Source: a virus (Duplodnaviria > Caudoviricetes). From it: 64,000 nucleotides of DNA. The stretch spans positions 1 through 64,000 of IMG/VR virus record IMGVR_UViG_3300035454_001303, one strand, 5' to 3'. Numbering within the stretch: position 1 is the first letter of the stretch; every line of letters begins with the position of its first letter. Of the stretch, positions 343-63,102 are shown in pieces. The position numbers were made by a program, and so were the translations under genes. The notes beneath the pieces were generated by a model that saw only the letters and a program-made list of their open reading frames with translations, was not told the origin of the DNA and ran no database searches.

Positions 343-1551
343 ATGCCAAGACAGGTTGTGCCATTGACAGATATGAAAGTGCAAAGATCAAAGCCCAAAG
401 ATAAGCCTTATAGTATATTTGATGGCGGAGGGTTATATATCCACATTTTGCCTGCGGGCGGCAAGTTGTGGCGATTTAAATATCGGTTCGATGGCAAAGA
501 AAGACTAATATCTTTCGGAAAATATCCAGAGGTTAGCCTTTCGGATGCAAGAAGAAAAAAGGATGAATCCAGGAAGCTGATTTCTGATGGCATTGATCCC
601 TCTACGGCAAGGAAAGCGCAGAAAGAGACGGCCATGAAGGATGCTGACACATTTGAGGCGATAGCGCGTGAATGGTATAAAAAGTTTCTCCATACATGGA
701 TTCCCGGATATTACTTAAGGATCATTTCTTCGCTGGAACGTGATGTTTTTCCAGATATCGGACAGAGGCCAATCAGGGAAATATTGGCCCCCGATCTACT
801 TTCTGTTCTTCGCAAGATAGAAGAACGGGGAGCCATTGATACCGCCCATAGAGTCAAAGCTTTTTGTGGGCGAATATTTCGATATGCAATCGCCACGGGC
901 CGGGCCGACCGTGACCCCTCCGGGGATCTCAGGGGTGCAATACCTCCGCCCGCGCCTGGGCACATGGCCGCCATAACCGATCCAGAGCGCGTCGCTGAAT
1001 TATTAAGGGCAATTGATAGTTACGGCGGTAGCTTCCCGGTTCTGTGTGCCCTTAAACTTGCGCCGATGCTCTTTGTCCGCCCCGGAGAATTGAGAAAGGC
1101 GGAATGGGTAGAAATCAACCTCGATGAAGCCGTTTGGAACATCCCAGCGGAAAAGATGAAAATGAGGTCCGCTCACCTTGTTCCTCTGCCAAAGCAAGCC
1201 GTTGACATACTGAGAGAGCTTTATAGATACACAGGGGGAAGCATATATTGCTTCCCTTCCGCGAGGTCATTTAATCGGCCCATGTCAGATAATGCTGTTT
1301 TGGCGGCACTGCGACGTATGGACTATGCAAAAGACGAGATGTCCGGGCATGGGTTTCGGGCGATGGCGAGGACGATTCTCGATGAAGTGCTGGGGGTTAG
1401 ACCGGATATTATTGAGCATCAATTAGCTCATCAAGTAAAAGACCCATTGGGCAGGGCGTACAACCGGACGAAATTTCTGGATGAACGCCGAAAGATGATG
1501 CAACAATGGGCCGATTATCTTGATGGGCTGAAGGTTGATAAAGATCATTAA
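343..1551 (+). CDS. int: P4-family tyrosine integrase with N-terminal arm-binding domain
   Basis: N-term DGGGLY...GKLWRFKYRFDGKE; catalytic residues in FVRPGE, HGFR and HQLAH...AYNR. Confidence 0.95.
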   Translation: MPRQVVPLTDMKVQRSKPKDKPYSIFDGGGLYIHILPAGGKLWRFKYRFDGKERLISFGKYPEVSLSDARRKKDESRKLISDGIDPSTARKAQKETAMKDADTFEAIAREWYKKFLHTWIPGYYLRIISSLERDVFPDIGQRPIREILAPDLLSVLRKIEERGAIDTAHRVKAFCGRIFRYAIATGRADRDPSGDLRGAIPPPAPGHMAAITDPERVAELLRAIDSYGGSFPVLCALKLAPMLFVRPGELRKAEWVEINLDEAVWNIPAEKMKMRSAHLVPLPKQAVDILRELYRYTGGSIYCFPSARSFNRPMSDNAVLAALRRMDYAKDEMSGHGFRAMARTILDEVLGVRPDIIEHQLAHQVKDPLGRAYNRTKFLDERRKMMQQWADYLDGLKVDKDH

Positions 1552-7665: not shown

Positions 7666-7723
7666 AAGGGGGCGGGCTGTCGCCCGCCCCACAGATTTAC
7701 AGACTACGCTCAACCGATATAGG
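7666..7723 (-). promoter_or_regulatory. DGR IMH plus GC-rich hairpin of the distal target
   Basis: 58 bp identical to 57591-57648, including GGGGCGGGC-GACA-GCCCGCCCC. Confidence 0.9.
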
Positions 7724-8693
7724 CGAGGCGGAACCCGAGGGCCGTGTACACGCCCGTGCGCGCGCTGCCGAGGTCCAACGCAGCGACCCCGGCACTGGCA
7801 CCGCCGCCCCAGTACCCAAAGCGGATCGGAACGCAAGTGGCGCGGGCGGAGTTATCGGCCCACATATACCCGAGTGGTTCGGGGTGATCGTCTTTCTTTG
7901 TCAGCGAACTGGGGGCGATAAGGGCTTGCCGCAAGGAGACGGGAACGCCATATCCTGCCTTGATCGATACATCCTTAAAGGACTGTGAAAGCCAGTCGCG
8001 CCGCGTGATTTCATCTGAGATTTGAATTCCGTCAACGCCATCGATCCTTGCCCCTGTGTCGGGCCAATTCTTTTCGGGCAGCGTGAAGTCGTTGTCGGAA
8101 GGCATGACGATCTTTCCGCCCACGAGCTTCAGGCCGTCCTGATGCTCCCAAATATTCCCCACCAGGTCAGCGACGCCGGCGATGGTTCCGTCATGACGCC
8201 ATGAGAGCGGCCCCGATCCGGTCATGGTTTTGCCGTATTCGCACACCATTCCCTTTTCTTCGGGGCACGAGTGCGACTTCCCGTAATCGGTGTTCCCCCT
8301 AGGGAGTCCGTTTTTCATGCACCACAAGGCAAGGGCCGCAGATTCCCAGTTGGTCATCATGTGAAAATTGGGACCGCAGGCGAGACATGTCTTGATTGCG
8401 TCATCGTGATTGATCGAGGCGCGCGGGTTTTGATAGGGGAGCGAAAGGGCTTGGCCGTCTTGAACGATGGATAGGTACGTGCCGATCATCATCTCCGTGA
8501 CTTCTCTTCCGCCTACGATGAAGGCCGGGTGAAGACCGGTTCCAAGGTCTTCGGCAATATCTTCGCATCTAAAGGCCGGGATGATGGTCATGAAGGTTGG
8601 CAAGCCCTTTTCCGTATAAAGGACGGTGCATTTTCCTTCCGTGGCCGCTTCGACTGATTTCCGCAGTGGATCAGGTGTCAAAATTGTTGTCAT
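7710..8693 (-). CDS. Distal DGR target protein, CLec/FGE-sulfatase-like fold; paralog of 56588..57604
   Basis: DPLRKSVEAATEG..., HPAFIVGG, SGPLSWRHDGT, GNIWE; C-terminal VR ending LGFRLAYIG, the same as the tail target. Confidence 0.9.
   Translation of the reverse strand: MTTILTPDPLRKSVEAATEGKCTVLYTEKGLPTFMTIIPAFRCEDIAEDLGTGLHPAFIVGGREVTEMMIGTYLSIVQDGQALSLPYQNPRASINHDDAIKTCLACGPNFHMMTNWESAALALWCMKNGLPRGNTDYGKSHSCPEEKGMVCEYGKTMTGSGPLSWRHDGTIAGVADLVGNIWEHQDGLKLVGGKIVMPSDNDFTLPEKNWPDTGARIDGVDGIQISDEITRRDWLSQSFKDVSIKAGYGVPVSLRQALIAPSSLTKKDDHPEPLGYMWADNSARATCVPIRFGYWGGGASAGVAALDLGSARTGVYTALGFRLAYIG
7724..7834 (-). repeat. DGR variable repeat VR2
   Basis: Hand alignment to TR 58053-58163: 111 nt, 16 mismatches, all at TR adenines. 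Confidence 0.95.
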
Positions 8694-51557: not shown

Positions 51558-51910
51558 TTATGGCCGCTATTGAAGAATTCGATCACCTGATTGAGCTGAA
51601 CCCGTCCACGGAGGTGAAGAAATACGAGGATGAGGACGCACTACAGGACCGGATCTTTGAATGGTTTGAGACTCCCCAAGGGACAGTGGCGGATCTTCCG
51701 GGGTGGGGCCATAACCTGCTTCCCCTGAAGCATGAGCCCCAGGGGGTAAGTCTAAATGTCATGGCGGAAATGAGCATCACAATCAAGATGCCGCAGGACA
51801 TTGAAAACCTGGTCATTGAAAGCGTGAGCGTTGAATTCACAGAGATCGATCTGTGTCAGATCATTATCAGGCATCGCCTTGGGGTTTTTGAGGAGAAAAT
51901 AGAGCTGTGA
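51554..51910 (+). CDS. pmgA: P1 PmgA-like (T4 gp25-like) baseplate wedge protein
   Basis: RIFEWFETPQG.V..LPGWGH.L..LKHEP. Confidence 0.75.
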   Translation: MIMAAIEEFDHLIELNPSTEVKKYEDEDALQDRIFEWFETPQGTVADLPGWGHNLLPLKHEPQGVSLNVMAEMSITIKMPQDIENLVIESVSVEFTEIDLCQIIIRHRLGVFEEKIEL

Positions 51911-53310
51911 TTACAAAAGAAGAGGCAATCCAAAAATTTAAAGACATTCTGCTTGCGAAGGCGTCATGGAAAACCTTGTCGAAATCGCAGTTCGTCAATC
52001 ACCTTGCCGTTTTCATGAGCTGGGCGCTGCGGGAAGCGTTGTGGAAGATCGAAAGGACCTTCCAGGAATACTTTCTGTCCACGGCCTTGAATGAAGCCAG
52101 TGTGCTGGCCCATGTGGAAGATCGAGAATACCTCCCGCGCAAGCGCACGCCGTCTTCGGGATCCGGCACGATCACGAACAACGGTACGAGCGTTTTGTAT
52201 TTGCCGGCATACCAGCCGTTTTCGTCTGATGCCGACCTCGATTATGTCACCGACCGGGCCTTGTCACTCGCCGCAGGTGAAGCGGCGGAAGTCGAATTTT
52301 CACAGATGGTCAAGGAAGAGATCGTTCACGAGGTTACGGAAGAGAAGCCGTTCTACGAGATCCTTTTCGATAAGGCCCTAACGGAGAAAATCCACGATTT
52401 CACGGTCCAAGTCGATTTGGGATACGGCTATGAAGAATGGGATTGCTCGCGGCTCTTCCAGAACGCCAACGAGGGCGATCATGTTTACGATGAATTCTAT
52501 ACGCACGCCGGACAAACAGGAATCAGATTCGGGAATGACTACATCGGAACCATTCTTCCCGTTGGAACATCCGTGAAGGTCTCCCTGTGGTTGACTGATG
52601 GGGAAACCTATCTTGCAGAAGGGCAACCCCTGTACCCTGTTGGCGAGGTCCTGGATGCTTCGGGGCAGGTAGCCGATATGGAGGCCATCACGACCGAGGC
52701 CATCACTGACGGTCAGGCAAAAGAGACCGTTTCGGAGATGCGACAGAACCTCCAATACTGGCCCATCTATAACGAAAAGCTGGTATGGCGTGACGATTAT
52801 GTCTTCTTCATCAAGAGAGCTGTGGCAAGCATCCTGTGGATCAACGTGTGGGGCGAAACAGAGGCCGAGGCGATCCACGGGCCACGATTCGAGTTCATCA
52901 ATAAAATCTTTGTGTCTTCCTATGCTGAAGACCGTCCGAATCTTGAAACGGAGGTCATGAGCGCCCTTTCCGATGTCCACATTCTGAACCGAAAATTCGA
53001 GTGGGTTGCGCCGTTGCTTTCCACGTTCCACCTGACCATCACGGGGAAGGTCCCCAGGACGGTAATCATATCCGATGTGCAGGCAGCCATTATTGAAGCT
53101 CTGACAGATAATTATGGAAAAGATTCCTCAAGCCGTCTGTCGGAGGTTCTTGTGAAGGACTTTTATCGGATCATCAACGCAACCGGATATTTCTCCACAA
53201 CCGGTGCCTATTTCAACGTGACCCATGCCGGGACGCTGGAGCCGACAGAACTAAACGAGATGGTTCACATCGACATGGATGCGACCACGATTTCATTGAG
53301 CTACTTATGA
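51907..53310 (+). CDS. bplA: Baseplate wedge protein, P1 BplA-like
   Basis: SQFVNHL...EYFLSTA....SVLA; GIRFGND.IG; VWRDDY.FF; INKIFVS. Confidence 0.85.
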   Translation: MITKEEAIQKFKDILLAKASWKTLSKSQFVNHLAVFMSWALREALWKIERTFQEYFLSTALNEASVLAHVEDREYLPRKRTPSSGSGTITNNGTSVLYLPAYQPFSSDADLDYVTDRALSLAAGEAAEVEFSQMVKEEIVHEVTEEKPFYEILFDKALTEKIHDFTVQVDLGYGYEEWDCSRLFQNANEGDHVYDEFYTHAGQTGIRFGNDYIGTILPVGTSVKVSLWLTDGETYLAEGQPLYPVGEVLDASGQVADMEAITTEAITDGQAKETVSEMRQNLQYWPIYNEKLVWRDDYVFFIKRAVASILWINVWGETEAEAIHGPRFEFINKIFVSSYAEDRPNLETEVMSALSDVHILNRKFEWVAPLLSTFHLTITGKVPRTVIISDVQAAIIEALTDNYGKDSSSRLSEVLVKDFYRIINATGYFSTTGAYFNVTHAGTLEPTELNEMVHIDMDATTISLSYL

Positions 53311-54839
53311 TCGACTGGCTGAAAAAAAGATTATCGCCCGTAAAGAGGGATTCCTCGCGATGGAGGGATCTCGCTGAAGCCATTCAGGGGTTTTGGGCGG
53401 AAAACTTTGACCCGAGCTATGACGTGCTCGCCGGTTTGCGGTCGATCTATACGGCTGACGATACGAATCAGAAGCGGATCGTTGTGGAGCTGGGCCATTA
53501 TTTCGAAGATGGGATCTCCGACGAGAACATCCCGGTCAGCGTTGCAACCCGCAAGATGGAGCTTCACCAAAAGGAAACGAACGTTCCTCTTGTCCGGTCT
53601 ATGGCGCGGATCGGCTTCGTCGCTGAATGGGCTCCCCTCTATGCCCCCAGGGGCGAGATTTATGGGACGGCATTTTATACGGAAGACGAGCTTGAAGCGG
53701 CGGGCCTGGACATCAATGCGGAACTACTTCGCCTGGATGGGTCGTGGCATGTTGGCGACGACCCGGCTGTGCATCTGGCTTCCGATGGCGTTTATCTGAC
53801 ATCTCGCGCGAAGATGGTCATTGATCTGTCAAGCGGGCGTGCACCCGAAATGATAGACGTGGCTCGCCGACGAATCATGCAGATCAAGCCGCTTCACATC
53901 GTTTTTGACGGCTTCAAGTATAAGATTTGGCTCGAAATATCGGCCATTCCGACCCACGAAATGCACCTGGCCATGACAAAAGTCGTTGCCCAACATTATC
54001 CCTGGTGCACGCCGAAGCTCAATGGGCTTTGGAAGATCGGTACGAACATCACCATCGCGCACCGGCACCTGAACGGATCATGGAAGCTGAACGGAGCGGC
54101 AGACCTTGGGTCCTATCAGATATCCGGGACGGTTTACCGGCAGTTACTCCAATGCACCATCACAAGCAGCATGGGACTCGCCAAGCATATCGAAAGGCCG
54201 GATGCCTATTTCGTGAACCGGCTCAGCGAATCGCTCTTGAAGCTCAATGGCCTGTGGCATGTCGGCATGAACCGGGTTCTGATCCTGAGCGGAAAGCGAA
54301 AGCTCAGGAAATCAATTGATTTGCCGTCCATTCCATCGGTCGGATTCGGATCGGGAGAGGGATGGACCGTTCAGTATCCGGTCTCCCCAAGGAAGCTGGG
54401 AGTTCTTCCGGCCCTAGTTTCGTATAGACGGCTTGATGGAACGTGGCAAGTCGGTGAGCCTGTCAGGAGCGTAATCCTTGACGGTACATGGAAGGTCCGG
54501 TCTCCGGGCATCAAGGCGGAATCGCGCCTGAAATTGGTAAAATTTCTTGGACACGCGGGGGTGTTTGGGAAGGTGGGGCGCTACACGGCCCAGGTCGGCA
54601 ACGGATGGTCTCGCAAACTTGACGGCATGTGGGGCGTTGGGGCCTATTGTGACGTTGACGGCACTTGGCGGCTCGATGGGTCAAAACGGCTTGGCGCAAT
54701 TCGCATCGGAAGATATTACCGCCGCCTCGACGGATCATGGAGGGTTGGGGAAGTGACGAAGCACCTGGATGGTTCGTGGCGCATAGGCCAGCCGGGACCG
54801 GTATGCGAATGCGAAATAAACATCAGAAAGGCGGCGTAA
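53307..54839 (+). CDS. P1 gp16-like baseplate protein with C-terminal LDGxW repeats
   Basis: LSPVK...DLAEAIQ; W.PLYAP; KPLHIVFDG; about 10 L[DN]G.W repeats. Confidence 0.75.
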   Translation: MIDWLKKRLSPVKRDSSRWRDLAEAIQGFWAENFDPSYDVLAGLRSIYTADDTNQKRIVVELGHYFEDGISDENIPVSVATRKMELHQKETNVPLVRSMARIGFVAEWAPLYAPRGEIYGTAFYTEDELEAAGLDINAELLRLDGSWHVGDDPAVHLASDGVYLTSRAKMVIDLSSGRAPEMIDVARRRIMQIKPLHIVFDGFKYKIWLEISAIPTHEMHLAMTKVVAQHYPWCTPKLNGLWKIGTNITIAHRHLNGSWKLNGAADLGSYQISGTVYRQLLQCTITSSMGLAKHIERPDAYFVNRLSESLLKLNGLWHVGMNRVLILSGKRKLRKSIDLPSIPSVGFGSGEGWTVQYPVSPRKLGVLPALVSYRRLDGTWQVGEPVRSVILDGTWKVRSPGIKAESRLKLVKFLGHAGVFGKVGRYTAQVGNGWSRKLDGMWGVGAYCDVDGTWRLDGSKRLGAIRIGRYYRRLDGSWRVGEVTKHLDGSWRIGQPGPVCECEINIRKAA

Positions 54840-54851
54840 AGGAGAAGAGAA

Positions 54852-55232
54852 ATGTCAGAAGCAACGACTACAAACAGTTTCAGGCAGAGGTTGGCGCGGC
54901 ACCATTATGACGGGACAGCACTCCCACAGGTGGCGCAAATGTCCTTCGGGGATGGCGGGCATAACCCGGACGGATCACCAAAGACCCCGAATGCGGCACA
55001 GACGGCCCTCGTTCATGAAGTGCTCAGGAAGAACCTGAGCGCGATCACGCAGGAAGATCTCTACTCCGTGACCGGGACGGGCATTGTCGCGGAGGCGGAA
55101 CTTGTGGGCACCCATATTTCAGAGGCCGGCCTTTTGGATGCGTCAGGGAATCTTCTCGGCTTTAGGAACTTCGCACCGAAAATCAAGGAAGCCGATGAAA
55201 CCTATGAAATCAAAATCAAATTGAAGTTTTAA
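54852..55232 (+). CDS. Tail-collar/fibre anchor protein (DUF3751-like)
   Basis: MSFGDGG...QTALVHEVLR...ISEAGLLDASGNL. Confidence 0.7.
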   Translation: MSEATTTNSFRQRLARHHYDGTALPQVAQMSFGDGGHNPDGSPKTPNAAQTALVHEVLRKNLSAITQEDLYSVTGTGIVAEAELVGTHISEAGLLDASGNLLGFRNFAPKIKEADETYEIKIKLKF

Positions 55233-55256
55233 CCCGAAGGAAAGGAGGACATTCAA

Positions 55257-56162
55257 ATGGCATTACCACATGCAGCAATTACGCCCATACCGAACAATGA
55301 GCCCGATGCCGTTCCCAGTCTTTGGAATGATCGTTATCTGGAAATTGACGAGAATTTTGAAAACTTGGATGAACGGGCGGCGGCCCTGGAAAGCGAGGTG
55401 CAGGCTGCGCGAGGCGGTCAGGCGTCTATGGATCAGCGCCTTGATCAGATCGAAACCAACGTGGAGGGGCTTGATCCCGAGTTTCAGAACAACCTGATTG
55501 CGGCTGTTCTGGCGGCCACGGACTTGGCAGCCCTGGCAAATAAGGAACTGGACCGGTTCCGGCGCGTCCGTATTCAGGAAGGGGAAACGACTATCTATAA
55601 TCGGGGAATCATTTCCGGTTGCGCGATTACACGAAAGGCAGCGGATGTAAGAATCCTGAGCCTGGCCCTTGGGAGTCTGTTTATCCACGGGCGCTCATAC
55701 AGCGTGCCAGCCGATGCCGACGCCACTTCCGTACCGCCGAACCCCGGAGCCAGTTCCGCAACCTGCTATGTCTATCTCTACATCGATGAGACTGGCACGG
55801 TCGAATGCCAATGCACGGCGCTGAATGCGGCGGCACCATCCACAGGCCTTGTAGTCTACACGATTACGGTTCCCGCTGGCAGCACGAATGACGGAGACGC
55901 CTTCACAATCACGGATGCACGGCGTGTATGTACGGGCTGGCCCAATGTGTTCGTGTCTCCCATCTATGCTTCGATTGCCCTGCCCTATGTCCTGCCCGAC
56001 GCGAATTATGCAGTGCATCTGGATGTGGCGTCCTGCGAAGGCGGGCGGCAGCAGATCGGGGCGCTGGAAGTCGAGGACCGGCTGACGAACGGATTTAAAA
56101 TTTACCTGGCGGGGGCGGCGGATGCAGTGAAGGTGCGCTACCACGTCCAGCGGATGATTTAA
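55257..56162 (+). CDS. Tail fibre shaft protein
   Basis: N-terminal coiled coil; C-terminal LPD.NY.V...TNGFKI gp53-like domain. Confidence 0.65.
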   Translation: MALPHAAITPIPNNEPDAVPSLWNDRYLEIDENFENLDERAAALESEVQAARGGQASMDQRLDQIETNVEGLDPEFQNNLIAAVLAATDLAALANKELDRFRRVRIQEGETTIYNRGIISGCAITRKAADVRILSLALGSLFIHGRSYSVPADADATSVPPNPGASSATCYVYLYIDETGTVECQCTALNAAAPSTGLVVYTITVPAGSTNDGDAFTITDARRVCTGWPNVFVSPIYASIALPYVLPDANYAVHLDVASCEGGRQQIGALEVEDRLTNGFKIYLAGAADAVKVRYHVQRMI

Positions 56163-56176
56163 AGGGGGGTGAGCAC

Positions 56177-56557
56177 ATGCAGGTTGAAGTCTTGGGAAAC
56201 GGCCCTTTGGTCGAATACGCGGTGAACGGAAGCGTCGTGAAGATCGGCGGCGACGGCGGAATTGAAATCGATTGCGCTGCAATTCAGGTAGACGCGGCGA
56301 TTGCGGTGGATATTTGCCGCGATGTAGCGGGAAACCTGGTGCAGGGCGTGAGCGAGGGCGTGTCCTATGTGGCGTCTCTCGTTGTGCCGCCGAAGGAAAA
56401 GAGCGAACAGCCAAAAGTCGAGGACGGAGAACCCGTTTTGGATGACAACGGCAACCAGGTTTATGAGGTTGTCGTCGCTCCCTTGAACATGAACAAGGTG
56501 CGGCTGTCCTTATGGCCCTTTGTGAACCCGGTTCCGGTATCGGAACGCGAAATCTGA
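56177..56557 (+). CDS. Small tail fibre adaptor protein
   Basis: Lies between the fibre gene and the DGR target; all-beta composition. Confidence 0.5.
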   Translation: MQVEVLGNGPLVEYAVNGSVVKIGGDGGIEIDCAAIQVDAAIAVDICRDVAGNLVQGVSEGVSYVASLVVPPKEKSEQPKVEDGEPVLDDNGNQVYEVVVAPLNMNKVRLSLWPFVNPVPVSEREI

Positions 56558-56587
56558 AAAAACAAAAAAGAATAGGAGGTTTAAGCA

Positions 56588-57604
56588 ATGCTGATTTTCA
56601 ATAAAGATCCTTTGAGGGCTTCGGTAGAGGCGGCAACTGGCGGCAGGGTTACGGTGCTCTATGACGATAAGGGGTATCCGTCCTATATGTGCGTGATCCC
56701 GAAATTCCTCGTGGAAACCATCGACGCGGATCTCGGGGCAGGTGTCCATCCGGCCTTCATCGTGAACGGTGTGGAAAAGTCCGAGATCTTCATCGGCCAG
56801 TTCAAGGCCAATGTTCTGGACGGTCGCGCCCTCTCTTTGCCCGGCTACGATCCGACCGCGAGTGTCAATTTTGACACGGCGAAGGGCTACTGCACGGCCA
56901 AGGGGACCGGCTGGCATCTCATGTCAAACTGGGAGGCCGCAGCGCTGGCCCTCTACTGCATCAAGAACGGGCAGCCCCGTGGCAATACCGATTACGGCAG
57001 ACACCACACATCGACTCACGAGTGCGGTCGTCGGCAGGACGGCGTTGCTCCCGGTACCGCCTCCGGCACGGCACGGACCCTGAACGGTTCCGGCCCTGCT
57101 TCCTGGCGTCATGATGGCACCCTTGCCGGAGTGGACGGCCTGTGCGGAAACATTTGGGAATGGGTTGACGGGATGAAACTTGTCAACGGTAAATTTTATT
57201 TCCCCGATGACAACTACTTTACCCAGGCTGAAGGGTCCTGGAAGGACCAGGGCGTGATTATGGCCGAAGACACGGGCGACAAGCTAGGTGTGGCCGGTAC
57301 GGATACGTTACACGCCTCTGGCGGCGTCGGGTTCGGGGCATGGAAAGGTCTCACCAGAACCACGGCCTATGCCGCCCTTTCCGACACGATCAAGCGGCGT
57401 TTCATGCAGGCCATGATCGACCCGGCGTTCAACAGTAGCGACCCTGTAGGGTATTTCTATTTCGACACCGATGGCGAGCGCGTTCCGCTCCGCTTTGGGG
57501 GCTGGGGCTACGGTGCCGATGCCGGGGTCGCTGCGTTGTACCTCAGCAACGCGCGCGCGGTCGTGGTCACGACCCTCGGGTTCCGCCTCGCCTATATCGG
57601 TTGA
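56588..57604 (+). CDS. Proximal DGR target: tail adhesin, Mtd-like CLec/FGE-sulfatase fold
   Basis: Last tail gene; HPAFIV, MSNWE, GNIWEWVDG; C-terminal VR ending LGFRLAYIG. Confidence 0.9.
   Translation: MLIFNKDPLRASVEAATGGRVTVLYDDKGYPSYMCVIPKFLVETIDADLGAGVHPAFIVNGVEKSEIFIGQFKANVLDGRALSLPGYDPTASVNFDTAKGYCTAKGTGWHLMSNWEAAALALYCIKNGQPRGNTDYGRHHTSTHECGRRQDGVAPGTASGTARTLNGSGPASWRHDGTLAGVDGLCGNIWEWVDGMKLVNGKFYFPDDNYFTQAEGSWKDQGVIMAEDTGDKLGVAGTDTLHASGGVGFGAWKGLTRTTAYAALSDTIKRRFMQAMIDPAFNSSDPVGYFYFDTDGERVPLRFGGWGYGADAGVAALYLSNARAVVVTTLGFRLAYIG
57478..57590 (+). repeat. DGR variable repeat VR1
   Basis: Hand alignment to TR 58051-58163: 113 nt, 16 mismatches, all at TR adenines. Confidence 0.95.
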
Positions 57605-57648
57605 GCGTAGTCTGTAAATCTGTGGGGCGGGCGACAGCCCGCCCCCTT
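57591..57648 (+). promoter_or_regulatory. DGR IMH plus 9-bp GC hairpin with GACA loop
   Basis: GGGGCGGGC (57624-57632)-GACA-GCCCGCCCC (57637-57645); identical copy at 7666-7723. Confidence 0.9.
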
Positions 57649-57671
57649 AAACCCCATTCACGGGAAACGGA

Positions 57672-58037
57672 ATGACGAAAAATCTGATTATCTACGAAAA
57701 GACTCTGGAAATGATCGAATACGGCACTATCGCGCTCCGTCAATTCCCCCGATATGAGAAATTTGTACTGGCGGCCATGATTCGGCAACAGATGTATGAA
57801 GTTCTGAAGCTGATCGTGGAGACCAATAAACGGACATACCGGAAAACAGCGCTGACCGAACTGGATATTGCCCATGAAACGCTCCGGCATTTGGTGGACC
57901 TCTCCTATCGGCGGTTGAAGTATCTCGATCACAAGAAATACACCCTGTGGATGGAGAAGATCAACGAAGTCGGTAAATTGTTGGGAGGGTGGATTCGCTC
58001 CCAGCGAGAAGGGGCACAGCCTGCAAAGAATGTTTAA
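57672..58037 (+). CDS. avd: DGR accessory variability determinant Avd
   Basis: L.IYEK...QFPRYEKFVL..MIR...LTELD...LV.LS...INEVGKLLGGWI four-helix-bundle pattern; between target and TR. Confidence 0.92.
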   Translation: MTKNLIIYEKTLEMIEYGTIALRQFPRYEKFVLAAMIRQQMYEVLKLIVETNKRTYRKTALTELDIAHETLRHLVDLSYRRLKYLDHKKYTLWMEKINEVGKLLGGWIRSQREGAQPAKNV

Positions 58038-58050
58038 TGAAGCTCTGTTA

Positions 58051-58163
58051 GCGCGTTCCGATCCGCTTTGGGAACTGGAACAACGGTGCCAATGCCGGGG
58101 TCGCTGCGTTGAACCTCAACAACGCGCGCACGAACGTGAACACGAACATCGGGTTCCGCCTCG
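58051..58163 (+). ncRNA. DGR template repeat (TR)
   Basis: AAC-rich template (NWNNGANAG...NLNNARTNVNTNIGFR) matching both VRs except at adenines; IMH* diverges (GACTTTGA vs GCCTATAT). Confidence 0.95.
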
Positions 58164-58318
58164 ACTTTGAATATGCCAGAAGGCGCCTGCTTACGGGCAG
58201 AGGCCCAGTGCAATTTCATAGGGAGGCTGTGTCCTTCCCGAAAGGGAAGATAGCCCAAAAGCCTTCATGTCTGAGTAGCAATGCCGAAACGTCATGAAGG
58301 CACTTTTAAAAGGAAAAG

Positions 58319-59347
58319 ATGAAACGTTATCATCATTTATATTCAAGAATCTGCGACATGGATAATCTTGAGGCGGCATGGAAGTACGTCCGTCTTGGAA
58401 AACGGTACGATAAGGAGGTTCTGCGCTTCGGATACTACACCCTGCAAAACGTCATCCAACTTCATAATGAACTGACCTGGAAGAACTATCGAATCGGTCA
58501 GTATCGCGAATTTATTATTAAGGATCCGAAAGAGCGCCTCATCCAATACTTACCCCTGCGCGACCGCATCGTTCAGCAGGCCCTTCACCAGGTGATCGAG
58601 CCCATCTTTGACAAGGGCTTCATTGATGACTCCTATGCCTGTCGTAAAGGCAAGGGCACGCACCGTGCCATGAAGCGACTGCAATACTTTTTGAATGCAG
58701 CTCGCGAAAAATGGCCTGGGAAGGAAATTTATTATCTCCATTGTGACATTCGTAAATACTTTCCCCATATCGATCACGACGTTCTTTATGGGCTCATGAG
58801 CCGGAAGATCAAGTGCGCCGACACGCTAAAGCTCATCAGGGCCATTATTGATAGCAGTACCTCAGATCCGGGGCTTCCCATAGGCAGCCTCTTCAGTCAG
58901 CTTTCCGCCAATGTGTATTTGAACGTCCTGGATCAGTTCGCCAAGCACGACCTTCGCGAGCGCTATTACCTTCGCTACATGGATAACTTCATCATCGTTC
59001 ATCACGACAAAAAGCATTTGCAACGGGTGAAGGATGAGATTCAAGGGCTTCTTAATAATCGATTGCGCCTGGAATTCAATCCGAAGGGGACCCGGATCGA
59101 CAAAGTGGCGGGAGGAATCGAATTCGTCGGCTATCGGGTCTATGTAGACCGGGTCAAGATCAAAAAGGCAAGCATCAAGAGAATGAAGAAGCGCCTGCGG
59201 GCCATGCGGGTTATGTACCGGGAAGGAAGGGCGTCGATCTGGAACATCAGCCAGCGCATACGGTCCTGGCTGGGGCATTGTTGTCATGCCGACGCAAAAG
59301 GGATCGCCGAAAGCGTTCTGTCCGGGGCAGTATTCACACGAGGATAA
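58319..59347 (+). CDS. DGR reverse transcriptase
   Basis: PKER.I...RDRIVQQAL, SYACRKGKG, DIRKYF, GLPIGSLFSQ (DGR GxxxSQ), RYMDN, FVGY. Confidence 0.96.
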   Translation: MKRYHHLYSRICDMDNLEAAWKYVRLGKRYDKEVLRFGYYTLQNVIQLHNELTWKNYRIGQYREFIIKDPKERLIQYLPLRDRIVQQALHQVIEPIFDKGFIDDSYACRKGKGTHRAMKRLQYFLNAAREKWPGKEIYYLHCDIRKYFPHIDHDVLYGLMSRKIKCADTLKLIRAIIDSSTSDPGLPIGSLFSQLSANVYLNVLDQFAKHDLRERYYLRYMDNFIIVHHDKKHLQRVKDEIQGLLNNRLRLEFNPKGTRIDKVAGGIEFVGYRVYVDRVKIKKASIKRMKKRLRAMRVMYREGRASIWNISQRIRSWLGHCCHADAKGIAESVLSGAVFTRG

Positions 59348-59362
59348 GGAAGGAGGTTTATC

Positions 59363-59956
59363 ATGATTCATATTGATTTTGAGAAGTTCAACAAAGCGGG
59401 CTTGAAGCCAATCCTGGATAAGTTCGAGAAGGCTGCCTTGCCAATTGCCAGCGTGGACGCGGACAATAAGGCAAAGCGCGAATCCGGCTTTCAGGTAAAG
59501 ACGGCCATCATCAATTTTGAAAGCGGCCAAAAGTTGCAGGTGAAGGCCAAGGCCGGGGGATCGATCTTTCAGGTGAAGCTGAACAGCAAGGTCCTCGCCA
59601 TCAAGTACGTTGACGACCTCGATAAGGCAATTCAGGAGGTCATCGATTATGTCAAGGAAAACGAGAAATCCTACCAAAAACAGAAGGAAAAGCAGCTTGC
59701 CCGGCAGAAGGTGAACGTTCCGAAGATCAAACCGGCAAATGTGTCCGTTTCGGAACAGATCACTCAATTCCAGACAGCCATTGATGAGACCAAGGCCGCT
59801 GATGACTCGCTGAATGAGCAGATCGCGGAAGCCGAAAACTCGAAAACCGAAAAAAGCACTGTCGTAACGACTCTCGAGACGGAGCTGAGCGGTCTGGTTG
59901 CGACGGGCGAGAATCTTCAGGCCGAATATGATCAATTGAAGGAGGTGGCAGCATGA
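59363..59956 (+). CDS. hdf: P1 Hdf-like protein
   Basis: DFEKFNKAGLKPILDKF...KR.SG...FESGQ...GSIFQVKLN; C-terminal coiled coil; precedes darA. Confidence 0.8.
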   Translation: MIHIDFEKFNKAGLKPILDKFEKAALPIASVDADNKAKRESGFQVKTAIINFESGQKLQVKAKAGGSIFQVKLNSKVLAIKYVDDLDKAIQEVIDYVKENEKSYQKQKEKQLARQKVNVPKIKPANVSVSEQITQFQTAIDETKAADDSLNEQIAEAENSKTEKSTVVTTLETELSGLVATGENLQAEYDQLKEVAA

Positions 59957-62097
59957 ATCCACTGACGGAAGGAAAAAGAATCAAGCTGGGTTATGACTAC
60001 TTCGCCACGGGTTTTTCGGGGATTCAGCTTTCGGAAGCATATTACAGGCTGATTGCCGACAAGCAGCAAGAACGCCTCCTTTTCGAGACGGCGACCATTG
60101 ACGAGGTTGACGAGGCTTATAACCCCTGTGACGAAAACGACCGGATGACGACCGAAGAACTTGTTTTAGAGGCTATCCGGATTCAGCGTTTCAATCGCAC
60201 AGAATCCAAGATGACCGCCCTTGTGCGCGTCTTCAATGGGTATTTGAAGGAAAAGAACATTGAGGCCATGGCGCCGGTCATCGGAATGCCGAAGAAATCG
60301 GGCCTCTTTGCGACCGTGACCGTGCAGATTCCTTTCAGCGACGGGCAGGTGGTAAGCATTATTTTCCACAGCCCCGACAACAACAAGATGAAGATCGCGG
60401 CGGATGATGAAATCATCGCTTTTCGGTGGCTCTTGAACAAGCGGGACATCACCCATGTGGTTTCTCCGGAAAACGATGCCGAAGTCAGCCTTCAGGAAAT
60501 CGGGAAGCGAACGGCCCAGTTGGTTGAAAAGAACAGCGCCCGGTTCCAGGTCATGCAGAAGGAGCTTGTGGCGCAACGGAAGACACTTGAAGAATTGAAG
60601 ACTCAGGCCGATGAGGGGGTGAAGCATCACGATGAACTCATGGCCAAGCTGAAGGAGGGGCAGGATGCCATTGAAGCGATGGATACGAAAATCGCCAACC
60701 TCCGCAGTCAGATTGAGAAGCAGAAGGCTTTCAATGACGACCTTCAAGGAAAAGTTGACGCTCTGAAGGCGAAGCAGGCCGGGAATGACGGCAAGGCGAC
60801 CGGGGGCGAGACCCCGAAAACCGAAGCGGAAATGAAGGCAGAACAAGAACGGACGGCCTATGAAGAGAAGCGGGCGGCACTGGGAAGTGAATTGACCGGG
60901 CGCGGATTCATAGATAACGGCATGGGCGGTGTCTGGAATAAAGAGGGATTCGGATATGTCCAGGCCAGTGGCGTGGATGGATACAGCATCGCGGTAGGTT
61001 TGGCCGATGGCAGCAAGAAGACGTTCTCTTCGGCCACCGTTGCCGGTTTCGACAAGCAGGCGACCAAGGCCCTGTCCATGATCGACAAGAAGCTCAAAGC
61101 GGCTGAGATCAAGATTGACCCTGCCGTCTCAGCCCTTGATGCTACGAACGGCTTTGCGGAATTCCTCATGAAGCAGGACGAAGGCCATGTCGAAGGGTAC
61201 AGCCCGAAAGAAAGCGTTCTCAATATTGATGCGAGCGCCAAAAGCGAGGGCCTTGATGCGAAATGGTCTGAAGGGGATGATGGCGGAATGCCCGTTGCAG
61301 TCGGAACTTTCACCATCGCGGGAGGCAACCAGATCGGTGGCGTGCGGATCAGCCCGGACGGGAAGGCAATATTCTTCCTGAACGGTGAGAGATTCAGGGG
61401 TGATTACTACTTCGCAAGCGCCGACAACGAGACCCAGGACGCGGCAATGAAGGAACTCGCCGTCATTATCAAAGCAGCGAAAGAGAAGGAAGAGAGGGCC
61501 AAGCAGGTGGATGAAACAAACCGTCTTATTGAAGTCGGGAAAAATGCGGTACCGGGAGTTCGCCTTCAGGATGCGGAGGAAGCCGGGAAGCTATGGGAGA
61601 TGAAAGGACGCGGCGAGTTGTCCGAGGAAGACTGGGGCAAATATGTCGAAGACCTTAAGGCGTCGAACAAGATTGCGAAATCCAACGGGCCTCAAGCCCT
61701 CATTGGCTCAACTATGACCTCTGACGACGAAAAACGCATTCTTGCCGAGCTTGCCAACCTTGGAGAAGAGGAATTGACGCGCAGGCATGAGGAAATTCGG
61801 GCCTATATGGAAGGTCCAGACTTCGAGGATCAAGACCCCGATTACAAGAAGTCCCTCCAAAACACCGAGTTCCTGCTGTTCACGGCAAAGAGCAACGTTC
61901 CGGATGAACCAGTTGCCGTGACCGTTCTCAACGACATCCTTGCCGGAAAATATGACGGCGACTCCACGAAGCTGGGAGAGGCCCTTGACCAGGCGGCTTC
62001 CGACCTGGAGAAGGATGGGAAGGCGGAACAATATGATGCTCTTCTGAATCAAGCAGCGGACTATCTGACGGAAATTCTGAAAAAGGAGGCGGCGTAA
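59953..62097 (+). CDS. darA: P1 DarA-like antirestriction/head protein
   Basis: IPFSDGQ.VSIIFHSP...IAFRWLLNKRDITH.VSP...LVEKNSARFQ; C-term LLNQAADYL. Confidence 0.85.
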   Translation: MNPLTEGKRIKLGYDYFATGFSGIQLSEAYYRLIADKQQERLLFETATIDEVDEAYNPCDENDRMTTEELVLEAIRIQRFNRTESKMTALVRVFNGYLKEKNIEAMAPVIGMPKKSGLFATVTVQIPFSDGQVVSIIFHSPDNNKMKIAADDEIIAFRWLLNKRDITHVVSPENDAEVSLQEIGKRTAQLVEKNSARFQVMQKELVAQRKTLEELKTQADEGVKHHDELMAKLKEGQDAIEAMDTKIANLRSQIEKQKAFNDDLQGKVDALKAKQAGNDGKATGGETPKTEAEMKAEQERTAYEEKRAALGSELTGRGFIDNGMGGVWNKEGFGYVQASGVDGYSIAVGLADGSKKTFSSATVAGFDKQATKALSMIDKKLKAAEIKIDPAVSALDATNGFAEFLMKQDEGHVEGYSPKESVLNIDASAKSEGLDAKWSEGDDGGMPVAVGTFTIAGGNQIGGVRISPDGKAIFFLNGERFRGDYYFASADNETQDAAMKELAVIIKAAKEKEERAKQVDETNRLIEVGKNAVPGVRLQDAEEAGKLWEMKGRGELSEEDWGKYVEDLKASNKIAKSNGPQALIGSTMTSDDEKRILAELANLGEEELTRRHEEIRAYMEGPDFEDQDPDYKKSLQNTEFLLFTAKSNVPDEPVAVTVLNDILAGKYDGDSTKLGEALDQAASDLEKDGKAEQYDALLNQAADYLTEILKKEAA

Positions 62098-63102
62098 ATG
62101 GCTCTATCATTCTCCGAAAAGCGATCCCTGCAGAAGGTGATCGCCACGAACCTTGCCAGCCTTCAGGCGGGCAACCTGTCCTTCCAGGACAAGCGGAAGT
62201 TTCAAAAAGAGATTCAGGACGCCTTTGCCAGACTGAAGGAGGCCGTTGAACTGAAGCCCGAGGCACAGAACCAAAAGCTCGCCGATCTGATTGCCGGGAA
62301 ATACAACAACGAGCCTCCCGAGGGATTTCTGAAGGTACTGAAGGAGATCGTTGAAGAGATCAACGACATTGAGCCGGTGAAGCCGCCCACGATTGCCTAT
62401 ATCGAAGTCAATCAGGACAAAGTGAATTCGATCATGGAAAGCGCCCTGGGTGAGGTATTTGGGAAACTGTGGGATAAAACGAAGGGATTCCCTATTCCGA
62501 TCATCGGAACATCCTCTTCGCAGCAAGCCACCAACGACGCCGTCAGGGTCAAGCCGCAGGACGGCGACTACGGGCCTCCAAAAAAAATCAGTATCGACAT
62601 CGATGACGATTTCTACGGCCCTACTTCTTTTCGTGCCGTGATCAGGGCCATCGAAGAGGCCCGGGCGGGAGACACGATTGAAATCAAGCTCAACTCCAAC
62701 GGCGGAGATACCCAGGCGGCGCAAGCCATTTACGTGGCGCTCCTGAAAACGCTGGCGAAAACGAAAGCGATCATCATCAACGCCTATTCTGCGGGGAGCA
62801 TCGTCGCAATGGCCTGTGATGAGATCGAACCGACGCCCTTCTGTACCATGATGATTCACAACGCATCGACATTCAGTGGCGGGAAGCTCGGGGATCTGGC
62901 AGGGAAAGCGGCATTCCTGAATGATTACTTCGGGGAATGGTTCCAACAGCTTTACGCGGGGTTCCTTACCGAGGAAGAGCTGAAAGACATCATCAAGGGC
63001 CAGGATTTCTGGTTGAAAGAACCTCAGATCAGGGAACGCCTGAAGAACTGGAAGCCGATCCGCCAAAGACTCCAAGAAAATGGAACCATAAAGGCGGCCT
63101 GA
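62098..63102 (+). CDS. DdrA-like N-terminal domain fused to a ClpP-like serine protease
   Basis: N-term about 115 aa resembles recalled P1 DdrA and is syntenic; then LNSNGG, AYSAG, MIHN and QDFWL. Confidence 0.75.
   Translation: MALSFSEKRSLQKVIATNLASLQAGNLSFQDKRKFQKEIQDAFARLKEAVELKPEAQNQKLADLIAGKYNNEPPEGFLKVLKEIVEEINDIEPVKPPTIAYIEVNQDKVNSIMESALGEVFGKLWDKTKGFPIPIIGTSSSQQATNDAVRVKPQDGDYGPPKKISIDIDDDFYGPTSFRAVIRAIEEARAGDTIEIKLNSNGGDTQAAQAIYVALLKTLAKTKAIIINAYSAGSIVAMACDEIEPTPFCTMMIHNASTFSGGKLGDLAGKAAFLNDYFGEWFQQLYAGFLTEEELKDIIKGQDFWLKEPQIRERLKNWKPIRQRLQENGTIKAA

Follow-up and report, generated by a model that had tools for sequence, protein, structure and literature searches.

Genes between gene 16 and hdf

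We have analysed the first 64 kb (64,000 nucleotides, hereafter the window) of an 82,186-bp viral contig from IMG/VR (IMGVR_UViG_3300035454_001303; CheckV completeness 91%), in which a diversity-generating retroelement (DGR) is embedded among the tail-fibre genes of a virus with a P1-type virion. Between the homologues of P1 gene 16 and hdf, the window encodes proteins of 126, 301, 126 and 338 amino acids (aa), followed by avd, a non-coding stretch of 280 nucleotides (nt) that holds the template repeat (TR), and the gene for a reverse transcriptase (RT); outside the TR/RNA region, the gaps between these genes do not exceed 70 nt. This is exactly the position of the fibre interval in P1, which carries its Cin inversion system there. 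We consider it very likely that the interval is a hot-spot for fibre cassettes, filled by interchangeable modules, and that the DGR does not stand here as a replacement for Cin. All features are listed in Table 1.

The affiliation of the flanking genes is clear. Approximately 25 open reading frames (ORFs) of the contig have P1 homologues (24-55% identity by tblastn), arranged locally as in P1. From about 30 kb onwards, pacB, mat, 26, 25, 6, 5, 23, 22, 21, pmgG and bplB follow each other on one strand, continued by pmgC, tub, pmgB, a sit-like tape-measure gene, pmgA, bplA and 16; distal to the fibre/DGR interval lie darA, ddrB, darB, ulx, prt and pro. Matches by tblastn were obtained for these genes, the sit-like one set aside, and for ssb, and PHROG matches added hdf and ddrA to the set. 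The virion and the Dar anti-restriction modules thus appear to be distant homologues of those in P1, at about 30-40% aa identity. A megablast search of GenBank phages with the 11-kb region gave no match.

A sequence-only reading of the window had proposed the order bplA-16-anchor-fibre-adaptor-C-type-lectin target-avd-TR-RT-hdf-darA-ddrA, with true P1 homologues on both flanks and the DGR in the interval that P1 uses for its R-S-U-cin-lyd block. Gene order, synteny and the tblastn and PHROG matches to P1 agree with it on each of these points, and the P1 order that it gave corresponds to the annotated record (bplA-16-R-S-U-(U'-Sv')-cin-lydC-lydA-lydB-hdf-darA-ddrA).

For comparison, 36 related loci, denoted by L numbers below, were collected through bplA pattern scans of IMG/VR, GTDB genomes and plasmids. 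The alignment-based bplA scan recovered the genome loci, whereas a scan with a single protein recovered none.

Table 1 Features of the window (positions in the window; VR, variable repeat)
Feature	Position	Strand	Evidence and remarks
Tyrosine integrase with arm-DNA-binding domain	343-1551	+	Left end of the contig
DGR target 2 (remote), paralogue of target 1	7710-8693	-	47% identity, BLASTP E 6e-95 to target 1
VR2	7721-7834	-	114 nt vs TR, 17 mismatches, 17/17 at TR adenines
bplA homologue, baseplate wedge, left conserved flank	51907-53310	+	phrog_1369 2e-110; 30% identity to P1 bplA, full length
Gene-16 homologue	53307-54839	+	phrog_2015 over residues 3-216; tblastn to P1 gene 16, E 1e-13
126-aa baseplate-proximal fibre anchor, tail-collar-fibre N-terminal domain	54852-55232	+	PF12571 1e-09; phrog_1780
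301-aa distal fibre protein, mosaic	55257-56162	+	Residues 8-43 P1-like plug; 47-300 Bise-like
126-aa small beta-sandwich protein, possible adaptor	56177-56557	+	phrog_8734 1e-20; AF2 pLDDT (predicted local distance difference test) 78
DGR target 1, 338 aa, C-type-lectin-fold variable protein, putative receptor-binding tip	56588-57604	+	phmmer to PDB 5VF4 (TaqVP) E 5e-70
VR1	57477-57593	+	117 nt vs TR, 17 mismatches, 17/17 at TR adenines
VR 3' flank with GC hairpin, probable target-recognition element	57594-57650	+	Stem 57624-57632 / 57637-57645
avd	57672-58037	+	PF22296 bAvd 1e-26, above the Pfam cut-off; phrog_3206 5e-38
TR	58050-58166	+	117 nt, 26 adenines
Structured RNA between TR and RT, Rfam RT-14 motif	58165-58302	+	RF02921, 50.2 bits vs gathering score 48.1, E 7.5e-05, full-length
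DGR reverse transcriptase	58319-59347	+	PF00078 9e-19; phrog_1423 2e-124; phmmer to BPP-1 bRT 8UB7 E 1e-57
hdf homologue, right conserved flank	59363-59956	+	phrog_1620 Hdf-like 7e-33; DarA_N 5e-07
darA homologue	59953-62097	+	DarA_N 3e-28; tblastn to P1 darA, E 8.5e-27
DdrA-like N-terminus fused to ClpP-like protease domain	62098-63102	+	phrog_1855 residues 1-106, E 6.6e-06; phrog_1827 and PF00574 residues 160-320

The retroelement and its two targets

The DGR is complete and genuine. VR1 comprises codons 297-336 of the 338-codon target gene, that is, the C-terminus of a protein with a probable C-type-lectin fold, and every mismatch between TR and either of the two VRs falls on a TR adenine. 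Read in frame, TR contains 12 AAC/AAT codons, which correspond to approximately 1.8e15 possible peptides. An Avd protein is encoded between target and TR, and the structured RNA that separates TR from the RT gene is probably the spacer or priming RNA of the DGR.

The 53 nt after VR1 are identical to the 53 nt after VR2 and include a 9-bp GC hairpin (DNA fold of -13.9 kcal/mol, z -3.2, in the VR1 flank), which is preserved by compensatory changes in the related prophage L016. It is probably the homing signal, and it could also act as a terminator.

VR2 ends the gene of target 2, which lies 50 kb from TR among recombination-type genes. A single TR thus appears to serve both targets. Since this second target, which is not linked to the fibre genes, is mutated too, the DGR would be more than a tropism device. 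DGRs with two targets are reportedly also present in Bacteroides phages; the likeness is that one TR feeds a fibre-adjacent and a remote target in both cases, whereas the phage lineage differs.

The closest avd-RT core found elsewhere (Avd 90%, RT 81% identity) is located in the non-P1 contig L045, in a replication region with genes for primase and ParB-like proteins around it. It adjoins a target 79% identical to the remote target of the window, and not one of the fibre-linked type. This location suggests that the DGR core itself is mobile, and the fibre-linked target may not have been its original partner.

A clade of reverse transcriptases with a YMDN box

The RT possesses an intact DGR hallmark, IGSLFSQ, in agreement with the pattern [I/L/V]GxxxSQ. 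Its motif 5 reads RYMDNF, with YMDN at residues Y220-N223 (58979-58990) and Asn in place of the second Asp, and so departs from the YxDD box. In a survey of DGR RTs, both aspartates were found to be 100% conserved (Schillinger et al. 2012; PMC3521204). One could suppose from this that the YMDN enzyme is dead, that the element is a relic, inactive or in decay, and that the differences between VR and TR are fossil traces, the more so as L016 demonstrates that loss of the core is possible.

The distribution of the motif speaks against such decay. YMDN occurs in 37 of the 38 nearest RT cluster representatives (57-100% identity), the pattern not having matched the remaining one, P0023; RTs more distant than these clusters have YMDD. 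Conservation in all 37 readable clusters, down to 57% identity, suggests purifying selection on YMDN, which would make it a trait of the clade and not a lesion of the window copy. The genomic context of YMDN RTs was considered, besides the window, in L045 and L006, and the VR/TR mismatches of the three elements are confined to adenines (17/17 twice in the window, 13/13 in L006 and 21/21 in L045). Given this purely adenine-specific pattern, the YMDN enzyme is very probably active. Moreover, the ORFs are intact, neither target has acquired a stop codon or a frameshift, and TR and VR have diverged together. We therefore regard a defunct element as improbable.

The YMDN clade is the least expected item of this analysis and is biochemically testable: if the Asn is functional, it would be a natural variant of the RT active site, in which metal use or fidelity may differ. 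We found no mention of YMDN in the context of RTs in the literature, which is weak evidence, as subscription journals were mostly not covered.

Fibre-side proteins and the junction of the cassette

Within the lineage, no protein of the region is more highly conserved than the 126-aa anchor, which is 97% identical in L005/L006. The identity is 88% in L016, 69% in L033/L034, where hdf follows directly after it, and 36-39% in L009, L010, L031 and L032. We do not claim that the anchor is a split-off N-terminus of S; BLASTP against P1 gpS revealed no significant similarity, and only the PF12571 match remains.

The following 301-aa fibre protein is a mosaic. Over residues 8-43 it shares 58% identity with the N-terminus of an otherwise unrelated 627-aa fibre encoded in L009, a P1-like contig without a DGR, while residues 47-300 are 38% identical (E 1e-54) to the 309-aa protein of Pseudomonas phage Bise, a non-P1 myovirus. 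The fibres of L010, L025, L031 and L032 begin with this N-terminus of approximately 45 aa as well. As the P1-like part gives way to the Bise-like part at this point, the boundary of the exchange is placed approximately 45 residues into the fibre. Anchor and N-terminal plug would thus belong to the P1-type baseplate, the remainder being a mobile distal module. The AF2 model of the fibre (pLDDT 84) consists of long helices (residues 20-105) and subsequent beta domains, and VIA-align matched it with middling scores (Z 8.0-8.8) to C-terminal domains, or tips, of tailspikes and tail fibres and to H-type lectins, in a list dominated by phage receptor-binding proteins.

The small beta-sandwich protein next to it is 72-75% identical in L006 and L016. 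VIA-align related it weakly to SPP1 gp22 (Z 5.2); a resemblance to the Mtd beta-sandwich (residues 57-171; Z 3.0) was too weak to be used. From its position one may guess at an adaptor between fibre and target. Foldseek against the PDB retrieved no match at E <= 0.001 for the model of either the 301-aa or this 126-aa protein.

Target 1 belongs to phrog_2889 (2.5e-108) and has a weak match to phrog_5302, annotated as ‘tail protein’. Its alignment with TaqVP, the DGR variable protein of Thermus aquaticus, includes the VR segment. In Pfam there was no FGE-sulfatase or lectin match for either target, and no tail domain for target 1; the C-type-lectin fold is therefore assigned on the homology with 5VF4. 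Judging from context and fold, target 1 would be placed on the virion and would set the host range.

The protein might instead have another function, for example, like its remote paralogue, as a binding protein that is secreted or intracellular. The paralogue and the L045 cassette are indeed found in non-structural regions, and a Pfam tail domain is lacking. Yet the genes of anchor, fibre, adaptor and target stand directly one after another on one strand, tightly packed at distances of 12-31 nt. Bise has this order after its baseplate genes J and I, and ORF35 of Vibrio phage VHML, a homologue of the target, comes after a gene with a fibre N-domain. The phrog_5302 match, weak as it is, points the same way, and L016 retains the target without the DGR core, as would be expected of a structural gene. 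A role other than receptor binding is accordingly thought unlikely.

What fills the interval in related loci

In nearly all of the 36 loci, hdf-darA is found after gene 16, with a variable interval of 2-9 kb between them, which indicates that the slot is conserved across the P1 supergroup. In L005/L006 (bplA 84% identical) it is occupied by the same cassette with its own TR/VR pair, all 13 mismatches of which fall on A. Differences between the TR of L005/L006 and the window TR that do not involve adenines are mirrored in the VR of L005/L006, so transfer from TR to VR would have taken place after the split from the window lineage.

The closest integrated relative, L016 (bplA 72%), is a prophage in the chromosome of a Syntrophorhabdaceae metagenome-assembled genome (OY762209, 5.5 Mb). 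Still present are gene 16, the anchor, the proteins of 301 and 126 aa and the target (86% identical). Homology to the window is lost 43 nt into avd (57714) and regained at 59315, 32 nt ahead of the RT stop; these two remnants of 43 and 32 nt, one from avd and one from the 3' end of the RT gene, are all that is left of the core at L016:15741-15935. A stretch of 1.6 kb with avd-TR-RT is thus cleanly deleted in this natural loss allele. No DGR-type RT was found elsewhere in the L016 genome, and a search of it with TR DNA returned nothing; local blastn shows a VR-like segment at 74% identity.

Other members of the group are filled differently. L007, L027, L041 and L008 (bplA 63-71%) have a plain fibre and a fibre-assembly chaperone in the slot, and in L033 and L034 it is reduced to the long form of gene 16 and the anchor. 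Other DGRs occupy it in L031, L032 and L043 (bplA 42-47%), with RTs 34-39% identical to that of the window and VR/TR mismatches at A in 27/32, 14/14 and 11/11 cases, respectively; their targets gave no tblastn match. In the marine and enterobacterial branch, the slot is taken up by plain fibres or by R-S-U-lydA-lydB.

On the bplA tree, the DGR state changed at least three times, always within the clade that holds the Syntrophorhabdaceae and Desulfobacteraceae (Thermodesulfobacteriota) rows, and the clade of P1 and marine gammaproteobacterial viruses is without it. A broader proposition, that P1-type phages of Thermodesulfobacteriota recruited DGRs into the slot on at least three separate occasions and that the YMDN clade is conserved and evidently active, has in our estimate about an even chance of being correct.

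The slot DGR of L043 (L043:13552-19654; a 682-aa target, avd, TR and RT) is followed by a large fibre-like gene of 522 aa, which shares with the DGR target gene a 300-nt segment at 80% identity. This second gene may encode an undiversified alternative fibre.

Absence of Cin and origin of the cassette

The sequence-only reading had further suggested that a P1-type virion exchanged its tropism switch, DNA inversion, for mutagenic retrohoming at the same locus, and had called for a search for an invertase or cix sites elsewhere. No serine invertase (PF00239) was matched in the 82,186-bp contig, while the control was positive in 12 of 14 genomes. Between 54000 and 60500 there are two weak inverted repeats only (27-30 nt, 70%), neither of them flanking the fibre genes, and the slot holds no S, U or lyd homologue and no cix-like inverted-repeat remnant. 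Within 10 kb of bplA, a Cin homologue was found in none of the 36 loci, which include the closest sampled enterobacterial P1-likes, from Erwinia and Serratia (16-R-S-U-lydA-lydB-hdf, without Cin). Likewise, PF00239 was not found in the records of five relatives or in Vibrio p0908. The P1 record annotates the C segment as 92-94% identical to the G region of phage Mu, suggesting that the P1 branch gained it late.

The suggestion thus stands as far as the shared slot, the true P1 flanks and the lack of cin elsewhere in the contig are concerned, but nothing indicates an ancestral Cin in this lineage. Cin appears to occur in the P1/P7 branch only, so that the Cin system of P1 and the DGRs described here would have filled one slot independently. 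That an ancestor carried a P1-like Cin-invertible S/U segment, which a DGR then displaced at the same site, would suit the common interval and the fact that both systems diversify the distal fibre, yet with Cin in 0/36 loci and a plain fibre and chaperone in the nearest DGR-less relatives this swap is not supported, and we hold it to be highly improbable.

In the interpretation that we favour, a hot-spot filled by interchangeable fibre modules, the gene-16-to-hdf interval would be the slot for receptor-binding modules throughout the P1 supergroup. It would have been filled by a Mu-like invertible segment in P1, by plain fibres in most members, by R-S-U in others and, several times in the branch with Thermodesulfobacteriota-type hosts, by DGR cassettes. 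In the window, the lineage-constant 126-aa anchor would receive the N-terminal plug of approximately 45 residues of the 301-aa fibre, and the distal module (the fibre from residue 47, target, avd, TR and RT) would have been acquired by cassette exchange from a source that is also present in non-P1 myoviruses, namely Bise and, in part, VHML. By analogy with the known DGR mechanism, the RT would reverse-transcribe TR RNA inaccurately at adenines, and the resulting complementary DNA (cDNA) would take the place of VR1 in the 3'-terminal part of the target gene, guided to it by the shared 3' flank and the hairpin. In this way the ligand-binding face could be re-randomised at up to 16 codons, and the same TR would also feed the paralogous target 50 kb away.

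Several observations weigh against this interpretation. The second target sits among recombination genes, and the L045 core is found beside the second type of target. We infer the virion location of the fibre-adjacent target, whose closest solved homologue, TaqVP, is not a phage protein, and the fold matches of the 126-aa beta protein are weak (Z <=5.2). The RT is without the second catalytic Asp, and its present-day activity is deduced from sequence patterns. With the contig 91% complete, an invertase in the remaining part could strictly have escaped the search, and the 36 related loci, collected by pattern scans, sample the group and are not an exhaustive census.

Comparison with known systems

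The prototype is the DGR of BPP-1 (Mtd, Avd, TR and bRT). Both systems have homologous RTs, an Avd protein and TR-to-VR mutagenesis specific to adenines; in both, the variable protein is of the C-type-lectin kind and has a C-terminal VR, a hairpin follows the VR, and there is a link to the tail fibre. They differ in that BPP-1 is podovirus-like and has one target, Mtd, and a YMDD enzyme, whereas we find a P1-type contractile tail, two targets instead of one, a target of the TaqVP/VHML type in place of Mtd, and an RT with YMDN.

Bise and VHML are closer. Their targets (ORF35 in VHML) are 39-46% identical to target 1, and the order avd-TR-RT is the same. In Bise (38 kb), the baseplate genes J and I are followed by genes for a small protein, the homologous 309-aa protein, a 106-aa protein, the target and a four-helix-bundle protein, then TR and RT, so that both genomes have the layout baseplate, small protein, protein of approximately 300 aa, protein of approximately 110 aa, target, avd, TR and RT. 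Both phages, however, are small myoviruses (38-43 kb) with P2-type baseplate genes, whereas in the window the cassette appears grafted onto a P1-type baseplate via the P1-clade-specific anchor and the 45-aa plug.

With the Cin/C-segment of P1 the DGR has the slot from gene 16 to hdf in common, and with both this system and the Gin/G-segment of Mu the presumed purpose, a change of the distal fibre specificity. Serine invertase, cix-type repeats, alternative S/U C-termini and lyd genes are absent from the slot of the window, and instead of two states, mutagenic retrohoming could provide approximately 1e15 variants.

Variable loci between conserved tail genes and conserved downstream genes, with fibre swaps, invertases or DGRs, are known as receptor-binding-protein hot-spots elsewhere: the P2-like Z/fun locus with invertases and Toutatisvirus with a DGR (bioRxiv 10.1101/2024.10.15.618418). 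As invertases and DGRs are established as alternative fillings of fibre hot-spots in these groups, our observation is an extension and not a new principle. It adds the P1-type virion, whose tail has been studied for decades only with the Cin switch, to those with DGR-diversified receptor binding, and it maps the start of the exchangeable module beyond the constant anchor, near residue 45 of the fibre protein. The literature yielded no DGR in a P1-type phage or virion module, a weak negative for the reason of coverage given above. The loci also constitute a comparative series for what a DGR buys a phage, with an intact cassette (window, L005/L006), a deleted core (L016), plain fibres (L007, L008, L027, L041) and unrelated DGRs (L031, L032, L043).

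Lifestyle and neighbouring genes

A tyrosine integrase is encoded at the left end of the contig, and no tblastn match to the P1 repA/parAB, cre-lox or c1 regions was obtained in the contig. For these reasons we consider the phage an integrating temperate myovirus with a P1-type virion and not a plasmid prophage of the P1 type.

The gene-16 homologue is longer than in P1 (510 vs 278 aa), owing to a C-terminal extension of approximately 260 aa. This long form is common to L005, L006, L016, L033 and L034, where it co-occurs with the 126-aa anchor. The additional C-terminal half contains internal repeats, among them a 34-nt repeat family at 54014 and 54239.

In the Dar operon of the window, the DdrA-like part is joined to a ClpP/S14-like protease (PF00574), whereas P1 DdrA is a small stand-alone protein.

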